64,000 nucleotides of DNA from Draconibacterium sp. (GCA_037444065.1 JBBINB010000002.1:48642-112641); one strand, 5' to 3'. Shown: positions 39,739-39,969, counted from the stretch's first letter. Made by a program: numbers and translations. Notes: generated by a model from the letters alone, not told the origin.

Positions 39739-39969
39739 GTTTCGAGTTCCGAGTTCGGAGTTTCGAGTTCCGAGTTTCGAGTTCCGGGTTCCGAGTTCCG
39801 AGTTTCGAGTTTCAGGTTTCTTATTTCTTATTCCTTATTCCTTATTCCTTATTCTGTTGCCTACTTCCTACTTCCTACTTCCTACTTCCTACTTCCTACT
39901 GCCTACTGCCTACTGCCTACTGCCCACTGCCTACTGCCTTATGCCTGTTCCGGGTTCCGGGTTCGGAGT
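39739..39969. repeat. 33-unit compound heptanucleotide array (231 bp, perfect register)
   Basis: Unit families succeed each other without a phase break: gtt(t/c)cga x10; gtttcag; gtttctt; atttctt; attcctt x3; attctgt; tgcctac; ttcctac x5; tgcctac x3; tgcccac; tgcctac; tgcctta; tgcctgt; tccgggt x2; tcggagt. Ends 3 nt from the GH130 start codon. Confidence 0.95.

Follow-up and report, generated by a model that had tools for sequence, protein, structure and literature searches.

A compound heptanucleotide array upstream of a GH130 gene in Draconibacterium sp., probably derived from an intercistronic element of the Prolixibacteraceae

The spacer between a sodium:solute symporter (SSS) family gene and a GH130 gene was analysed in a 64,000-nt stretch of DNA from Draconibacterium sp. 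(GCA_037444065.1, JBBINB010000002.1:48642-112641; referred to as the window). Positions 39739-39969 of this spacer are occupied by a tandem array of 7-nt units. The array belongs to an already published class of bacterial heptamer repeats, and all its units go back to a single heptad that changed little by little. It is probably a compound heptanucleotide microsatellite and the expanded, one-armed derivative of an intercistronic element of the Prolixibacteraceae, in which the seven-nucleotide rhythm is a by-product of growth and the RNA may serve as an unstructured leader.

The array (39739-39969, minus strand) is 231 nt long, which corresponds to 33 consecutive pieces of 7 nt. Its self-identity is 0.839 at lag 7 and at most 0.35 at lags 1 to 6, and Tandem Repeats Finder (TRF) divides it into four abutting period-7 blocks (39738-39811, 39820-39854, 39858-39939 and 39947-39964; scores 63-122). 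For the pattern GTTN4GTTN4GTTN4GTT, 10 occurrences were counted in the window versus 0.02 expected from shuffles. The sense strand of the array, which is the minus strand, is 69% purine. The array is intergenic and lies between the stop codon of the symporter gene (39993-41822, minus; stop TAG at 39993-39995), from which it is separated by 23 nt, and the start codon of the GH130 gene (38551-39735, minus; ATG at 39733-39735), from which it is separated by the 3-nt spacer triplet at 39736-39738 (minus; sense TAT). Both gene families are confirmed by Pfam, and relatives of the GH130 gene are annotated as 4-O-beta-D-mannosyl-D-glucose phosphorylase. Sequence, lag-7 identity, TRF and Pfam thus agree with an earlier sequence-only reading of this DNA on the 231-bp extent, the 33 heptads, the flanking genes and the 3-nt distance to the ATG. 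That reading had also taken the open reading frames (ORFs) listed over the array for mere translations of the repeat, and rightly so: the plus-strand ORFs have no Pfam match and encode repeat peptides, and a coding role was rejected. A potential to form H-DNA or G-quadruplexes was likewise rejected from the sequence, since pyrimidines are scattered among the purines and G-tracts are absent.

Five blocks can be distinguished in the array, all given here for the minus strand and counted from the GH130 side. Block A (39739-39815) consists of the 11 units adjoining the ATG, with the sense units AACTCGA, AACTCGG and AACCCGG (GTTYCGA on the plus strand). Block B (39816-39856) contains GTTTCTT, ATTTCTT, three copies of ATTCCTT and the 6-nt unit ATTCTG (sense AAGGAAT and AAGAAAT). 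Blocks C and D (39857-39947) together comprise 13 units, which in the re-phased parse are five copies of CTTCCTA and eight of CTGCCTA type (sense TAGGAAG and TAGGCAG). Block E (39948-39969) starts with the 6-nt unit TTCCGG and continues with GTTCCGG, GTTCGGA and GT. The remaining 39970-39992, with the sense sequence CTTTTGATTCAAAGTTCCTAATG, is identified by comparison with relatives as the leftover of an ancestral 5' arm and loop.

The sequence-only reading had described the unit families as unrelated, had found that the array never loses its 7-nt phase, and had taken this as a sign of selection on the periodicity itself. Neither premise is borne out. When the array is parsed with two 6-nt units (ATTCTG at 39851 and TTCCGG at 39948), every full unit fits the plus-strand consensus N-T-[T/G]-[C/T]-C-N-N; position 2 is T in 31/31 units, position 5 is C in 29/31, and the information content rises from 4.2 to 7.9 bits. 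The families therefore share a common core, T-[T/G]-[C/T]-C, and this homologous core shifts by 1 nt twice, first at 39851-39856 in block B and again at 39948 in block E. Accordingly, the core T-[T/G]-C-C stands in phase 1 in units 1-16, in phase 0 in units 18-30 and in phase 6 in units 31-32. Because of the two slips, family E (TCCGGGT) is family A (GTTCCGG) rotated by 5 nt: TCCGGGT and GTTCCGA differ at 6 of 7 positions in the frame of the first reading and at one position after rotation. Block E is thus made of block A units standing 5 nt off that register, and is the counterpart of the relatives' 3' arm (CTCTGAA CCCGGAA). Families C and D are nearest to A and B after rotation by 6.

Neighbouring re-phased units differ mostly by 0-2 bases, the units at block boundaries are intermediates between the families, and runs of identical units are found within the blocks (5x CTTCCTA, 3x CTGCCTA, 3x ATTCCTT). 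This is the pattern expected for a single heptad lineage that has undergone substitution, re-expansion of mutated units and two single-base deletions. For truly unrelated units the notion of a register would be empty, since any rotation is an equally valid unit. Contiguity, in turn, is automatic, because slippage adds whole units and point mutation keeps the length. With descent from one heptad, contiguity from slippage and two slips of the core, selection on the 7-nt periodicity is not supported.

The origin of the array becomes apparent from orthologous loci. The closest relatives of the GH130 protein (80-92% identity) are found in Draconibacterium, Maribellus, Mariniphaga and metagenome-assembled genomes (MAGs) of Prolixibacteraceae, where the common gene order is FGGY kinase, symporter, GH130, OmdA-like gene, GFO/IDH/MocA oxidoreductase and GlcNAc-2-epimerase-family gene. 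The symporter-GH130 spacer is built from heptads in about 20 species and shows a constant layout in the mRNA sense. Some four GTTnnnn units start 0-7 nt past the symporter stop and are followed by a loop; units that are their reverse complement (nnnnAAC, equivalent to AACTnnn) then extend to 3-12 nt from the GH130 ATG. Spacer length (14-263 nt) and unit type vary across about 35 species. Paired inverted heptamer arrays able to form a stem-loop are present in 16/20 orthologous spacers, and 16/20 hairpins begin between -1 and +7 nt from the stop, with folding energies of -17 to -38 kcal/mol. Among the 11 orthologous spacers that were folded, 9 have a hairpin with z between -3.7 and -6.4. The unit sequence changes from species to species (GTTTAAA, GTTCAGA, GTTACAG, GTTGCGG, GTTCCGA), and the arms remain complementary.

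Three comparisons point to maintenance of the pairing. Arms pair with their own partner at a mean of -23.9 kcal/mol versus -20.0 kcal/mol across species, a difference matched by 9 of 10000 permutations. For the two outermost heptads of each arm, the share of paired cells is 80%; shuffles give 73%, and sliding the partner lowers it to 53% or less. The outer stem contains 26 double-sided compensatory cells where 13 are expected, and none of 500 shuffles reaches 26. As these tests are confounded by relatedness and anchored on sense-strand folds, they are moderate evidence. The same hairpins were compared for a constraint on the sense RNA: G.U exceeds A.C by 20:11 and the sense strand is the more stable one in 11/15, the direction that such a constraint would predict, but with p = 0.06 and with the segments picked from sense folds.

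A stable hairpin that lacks a U-tract and directly follows the stop codon of an operon gene occupies the classical position for stabilisation of the upstream mRNA or for differential expression. In this respect, the relatives' hairpin, which lies at the upstream stop and has no U-tract, is similar to intercistronic stem-loops and palindromes of the repetitive extragenic palindrome (REP) type. It differs from REP-type palindromes in that the stems are tandem heptads with only GTT/AAC conserved in sequence and that no dispersal as a mobile family is evident. This tandem make-up gives the stems more than one possible pairing register.

The element is not uniform among relatives. Two spacers have only the GTT arm (L019, L042) and two have only AACTCGT units (L027, L029). 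Short spacers without heptads occur at the same gene pair in Maribellus (L021, L028) and in two further loci (L033, L035), which means that the heptad element is dispensable. A search of Rfam 15, in both gathering and E-value modes, returned no family for the window or for the hairpins of five relatives. At permissive thresholds, the hairpin at L015 9833-9917 scores 25-35 bits against models of eukaryotic miRNA precursors with gathering thresholds of 61-102; this is a generic likeness of long hairpins and not homology. A separate observation is the 390-nt spacer at L021 6528-6917 (Maribellus sediminis), which consists of three higher-order repeats of ~130 nt built from heptads. These heptads (GGCAATA, CAGTTGG/CAGT, TCAATCC) resemble the GGCAGTA units of the window.

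The nearest relative, P0122, has 92.6% GH130 identity and is represented by two loci (L085, L086) from two Joint Genome Institute samples; among the members examined of the 90% protein cluster, no relative exceeds this identity. The 5' part of its spacer reads TAA GAGTA (GTTCAGA)x3 GTTCAAT and is followed by the loop. The 3' part reads (CTCTGAA)x2 CCCGGAA (CTCGAAA)x4 CTTTAAA CTCGAAA CATTAAA CTCATTTTT ATG, and the whole spacer folds at -39.6 kcal/mol. In a global alignment, block A of the window (39739-39815) is ~85% identical to the 3' arm and tail of P0122, and about 11 AACT-type units of P0122 are homologous to it. Block A is therefore ancestral and not a recent expansion. On the other side of the spacer, the 5' arm of the window has been cut to about two GTT-type units (~13 nt) versus four in the relatives, and the remnant at 39970-39992 reads ..ATTCAAAGTTCCTAATG in the sense direction. 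What the window lineage has gained amounts to ~150 nt, namely the purine-rich sense units AAGGAAT, TAGGAAG and TAGGCAG and a second CCCGGAA block, block E. The purine-rich units of blocks C and D are specific to this lineage; similar units (GGCAATA, GGCAGT, GGAAGTA) occur in spacers of L021 and L026.

These changes are reflected in the predicted RNA structure. The window spacer RNA folds worse than 200 of 200 dinucleotide shuffles (z = +2.51), forms no stable hairpin and lacks the inverted pair of arms that makes the stem-loop of the relatives. It is unstructured because the 5' arm has been reduced and ~150 nt of purine-rich units and block E have been added. The structure-poor intercistronic leader proposed in the sequence-only reading consequently holds as a physical description only: the fold agrees with it, and a terminator consensus scan found no terminator-like site in the symporter-GH130 spacer, just as a sigma-70-type promoter scan and a search for the Bacteroidetes -7 box TAnnTTTG found nothing there. 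The closest minus-strand TAnnTTTG box (43970-43977) lies 12 nt upstream of the FGGY kinase start and is the only one near the cluster. All promoter, terminator and -7 box calls are consensus matches, and on this basis transcription of the array within a polycistronic symporter-GH130 mRNA is plausible. A GC-rich, terminator-like hairpin (TCCCCTTTGGGGGAGTCAGAGGGGG, followed by CTTTATT) is located at 38465-38489 on the minus strand, between the GH130 stop and the OmdA-like gene, and may mark the end of a transcript after GH130.

The following course of events would account for the present array. An ancestor at the same site would have carried about four GTTnnnn units after the symporter stop and complementary AACTnnn units, both pairing in a long hairpin, with an unpaired tail reaching to the ATG. 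In the window lineage, the ATG-proximal AACT-type units (block A) would have been kept, and only about two units of the 5' arm would have survived. Point substitution, re-expansion through replication slippage or unequal exchange, and two single-base deletions would have given rise to the new units, ~150 nt in total. As re-expansion adds whole units, the 7-nt periodicity would be a by-product of growth and not a selected property. If the array is transcribed as part of a symporter-GH130 mRNA, the net effect would be the replacement of a hairpin by a long, purine-rich, unstructured leader that may leave the GH130 start accessible in an organism that does not depend on Shine-Dalgarno pairing.

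Several points weigh against this derivation of the array or limit it. Co-transcription, as well as any effect on GH130 expression, is inferred from sequence. The compensation in the hairpins and the recurrence of the terminal motif CTCGAAAC before the ATG at two non-homologous genes suggest that parts of the element are under selection, and for block A the term mere by-product may be too dismissive. In L021 and L026, the units resembling blocks C and D could be due either to the same course of mutation or to a function in common. Finally, nothing that was tested explains the preference for 7 nt.

A rather unlikely but coherent alternative is that the unstructured leader itself is selected. 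The heptads, especially the AACT-type units at the ATG, would then constitute an initiation region for ribosomes that start independently of a Shine-Dalgarno sequence, and array length and composition would set the output of GH130 relative to the symporter. Such a role is in line with an RNA that is less structured than every shuffle and with the fact that block A, unlike the remainder of the spacer, which has turned over, is conserved with respect to the nearest relative. The motif CTCGAAAC is found 4-9 nt before the ATG in 6 species, at two different genes; in intergenic regions it occurs only in sense orientation, and outside the window array it stands 5-9 nt before an ATG in 8/9 cases. In other phyla, repeats of TAACTGA (equivalent to AACTGAT) have the same position and orientation and have been proposed to act in translation (PMC4679880), and heptamers near start codons of Nostoc altered the output of a reporter (bioRxiv 10.1101/2022.06.06.494920). 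The alternative has to face, however, the heptad-free short spacers of Maribellus and other relatives. In addition, the strand bias comes from very few independent orthologous groups (4 vs 2 and 2 vs 1 of 232 groups) and is underpowered, and blocks B-E (~150 nt), at 80-230 nt from the ATG, are too distant for ribosome binding.

The TAACTGA repeats deserve a closer comparison. MacGregor described them in 2015 from Beggiatoaceae, Cyanobacteria and Bacteroidetes. Most have forward orientation and lie a few nucleotides before start codons, and they were predicted to be unstructured (PMC4679880). Bacteroidetes spacers hold arrays of as many as 43 copies in which other heptamers are interspersed; such arrays can be missing from the same spacer in close relatives and are frequent sites of contig breaks (PMC4679880). 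The window array is alike in being forward, in standing 3 nt before the ATG, in its unstructured RNA, in its length and mixture of heptamers, in the lack of heptads from the same spacer of some relatives and in the contig break inside it; read in the AAC frame, TAACTGA becomes AACTGAT, with an AACT core that is common to the AACTCGA and AACTCGG units of the window. Its units (AACTCGA, AACTCGG, TAGGAAG and others) are nevertheless not TAACTGA units, and only the AACT core of block A is common to both. Moreover, the window array is half of an ancestral hairpin whose other arm lies at the upstream stop, an arrangement of Bacteroidetes arrays that is not described in PMC4679880.

More speculative, and unlikely, is a reading in which the GTT/AACT heptads of Prolixibacteraceae, and by extension the TAACTGA-type heptads of other phyla, are a strand-specific intercistronic RNA device. 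A register-flexible hairpin at the upstream stop and an unstructured leader at the downstream start would together set how strongly neighbouring genes are expressed relative to each other in bacteria that make no use of Shine-Dalgarno pairing. If this were true, unit number and arm balance would be an evolvable dial, and the window array would be an extreme allele with the hairpin off and a long leader.

The sequence-only reading had further suggested a hypermutable spacer. As a contingency locus, the array would gain and lose units frequently and thereby tune or switch GH130 expression within populations, as does the (ATCTTTC)n leader of hmw1A and hmw2A in Haemophilus influenzae. There, the repeat supplies one side of a hairpin processed by RNase III, expression is tuned by the number of copies, and the 11-63 perfect copies change in number within days (PMC12721329). 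A heptameric simple sequence repeat (SSR) directly upstream of a coding sequence, in what is probably a gene leader, reproduces the hmw layout (PMC12721329), and in the relatives of the window array the repeat is also an arm of a long RNA hairpin. Spacers differ very strongly between species (81-263 nt), and runs of up to 5 identical units are prone to slippage. In contrast to hmw, with its at least 11 perfect copies, the window array is imperfect and compound, its longest perfect tract is 5 units, its hairpin is gone, and it is invariant in the available comparisons. No change in unit number is seen in these few cases: the array is identical in all, nearly identical, assemblies of the window population; the 124-nt spacers of L085 and L086 are identical despite 7 substitutions in 3185 nt (0.2% divergence); and the spacers of L003 and L005 differ by substitutions only. 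A catabolic enzyme of a sugar-utilisation cluster would also be an atypical target of phase variation. Hypermutability thus finds no support in this small sample, despite the large change between species, and a contingency function is improbable. A metagenome scan for the mid-array junction GTAGGCAACAGAATAAGGAAT returned a single contig (L084), in which the match lies in an unrelated coding sequence and was discarded as chance.

The idea of a periodic binding platform, also raised in the sequence-only reading, is very improbable. It would involve an RNA- or DNA-binding protein that recognises GGAA or GGCA (sense) or TTCC (antisense) at 7-nt spacing. The recurrence of the core T-K-Y-C every 7 nt across all blocks would suit such a protein, and S1, Csp and CsrA-like proteins have been proposed as binders of TAACTGA (PMC4679880). 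The phase of the core slips twice, however, and the unit sequence at the same site differs widely among species. The heptad excess is seen in many phyla whose units are unrelated to each other; this speaks for a mutational cause and not for one dedicated protein.

An assembly artefact, that is, a mis-assembled or inflated array, is barely credible. The site is difficult for assemblers, as the break of an independent Logan contig within the GGAAGTA block shows, but over the covered 154 nt this contig shows no difference. The array sequence is also the same on two contigs of MAG GCA_964423295.1, no perfect tract exceeds 42 nt, and homologous heptad spacers are present in dozens of independent assemblies. 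In this MAG, the locus is found on both L001 (CAYREM010000002.1) and L083 (CAYREM010000015.1); the two sequences are practically the same, pointing to redundancy or to strain duplication within the bin. The two cannot be counted as distinct haplotypes, as the first 17.8 kb including the array are identical and differences are confined to a repeat-domain gene. Likewise, the only differences between the window and CAYREM010000002.1 lie in a large HYR/PKD repeat-domain gene (window ~31707-31754, L001 17792-17982). The BLAST alignment breaks in this gene, and overlapping segments imply an indel of ~143 nt that is either copy-number variation of domain repeats or mis-assembly.

The derivation from a Prolixibacteraceae element places the array among the heptanucleotide SSRs known from other bacteria. 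Heptameric SSRs are over-represented in many bacterial genomes, a finding that PMC4692102 attributes to Mrazek et al. 2007, and a slippage hypothesis, in which the length of DNA in the polymerase active site matters, has been put forward to explain it (PMC4692102). Xanthomonas genomes each contain ~185 arrays of GGGAATC type with a conserved core and variable positions, including 70-75 inverted pairs able to form stem-loops; across species, the same gene pairs are occupied and the pair type is kept while lengths vary (PMC4692102). Together with the cyanobacterial short tandemly repeated heptamers (STRR) and the Nostoc GGGGAYT repeats, these arrays share with the window array the tandem heptads with a conserved core and variable positions and the almost exclusively intergenic location, and with the Prolixibacteraceae spacers the occupation of the same gene pairs in related species, the variation in length and sequence, and the frequent inverted pairs (PMC4692102). 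The array has the features of a heptanucleotide SSR, namely at least three tandem units, an intergenic position, units related by descent and variation at the orthologous site. It differs from those described in PMC4692102 in its GTT/AAC core in place of a G-tract, and hence in having no G-quadruplex potential, in its lineage, the Bacteroidota, in the loss of the inverted partner and in its compound structure of five blocks.

Heptad arrays are not restricted to this spacer. A second spacer of like architecture is present in the window at 12109-12206 (minus), flanked by an NAD-dependent epimerase/dehydratase gene (12204-13241) on one side and by a cytidylyltransferase-like gene (10975-12111) on the other. 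It reads TAA, GTTTAGA GTTCGGG GTTCCAG GTTTCAG, loop, ATCCGGC ATCCAAA ATCCAAA ATCCGGT, ATG, and folds weakly better than shuffles (z -1.7). A third heptad leader (48050-48104, plus; ACTTTAA ACTTTCA TCTTTAA ACTTTCA TCTTTAA; TRF score 71, 14-nt super-period) precedes an aminotransferase class V gene (48105-49217), its end being 9 nt from the ATG; no complementary arm was found upstream of the leader. In 634 kb of Prolixibacteraceae loci, 34/34 heptad-periodic segments are intergenic. Arrays also occur in Prevotellaceae, Ignavibacteriales, Pirellulales, Opitutaceae and Terracidiphilus. A mechanism specific to Prolixibacteraceae was considered, as 145 versus 88 arrays per Mb are detected at a low TRF threshold, but it was rejected: among tandem repeats with a TRF score of at least 45, multiples of 7 account for 29/75 in Prolixibacteraceae and 29/73 in other phyla (~39% in both). 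The heptad excess is therefore general and not lineage-specific.

Some of these loci are of interest in their own right. The divergent spacer at L079 2123-2689 (a Prevotellaceae MAG) contains a compound array of ~120 nt with GGTTCAT, four copies of GTTTCAA and GGTTCAG, so multi-family arrays with a GTT core also exist in gut Bacteroidales. Among the spacers compared, units similar to TAACTGA were seen only in L059. Terracidiphilus (L059 17697-18532, L062 18969-19252), a member of the Acidobacteriota, combines TAACTGA-type units (AACTGAC AACTGGT AACTGAC AACTGAT AACTGAG) with arrays of GGGAATA and CCCTAGT in its spacers; Acidobacteriota are absent from the phyla listed in PMC4679880. The locus L025 looks unusually repeat-rich: at 19858-20795, GGCTTGA/GGCTTGT heptads adjoin a long array of CAACACAG type, and at 15223-16058, TTCTTAT heptads adjoin GAGCTTC/AAGCCGC units.

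The array is embedded in a set of genes at 35459-43958 that encodes an FGGY kinase, the SSS symporter, GH130, an OmdA-like protein, a GFO/IDH/MocA oxidoreductase and a GlcNAc-2-epimerase-family protein, with a GH5 gene further on in L001. From its gene content, this set looks like an epimerase-phosphorylase route for the use of mannobiose or mannan.

The main value of the analysis is a correction: a 7-nt array with multiple unit families needs no selection on its periodicity, and unit homology and phase should be checked before such arrays are called exotic elements. A more modest use is that an array of the Bacteroidota is tied to the long-noticed and functionally unexplained excess of heptamers in bacteria. 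It does so at one conserved gene pair, where a stop-proximal hairpin with compensatory change and an ATG-proximal leader are found together. Cultured Draconibacterium and Maribellus species naturally differ in the presence of the element and make this gene pair a tractable test case.

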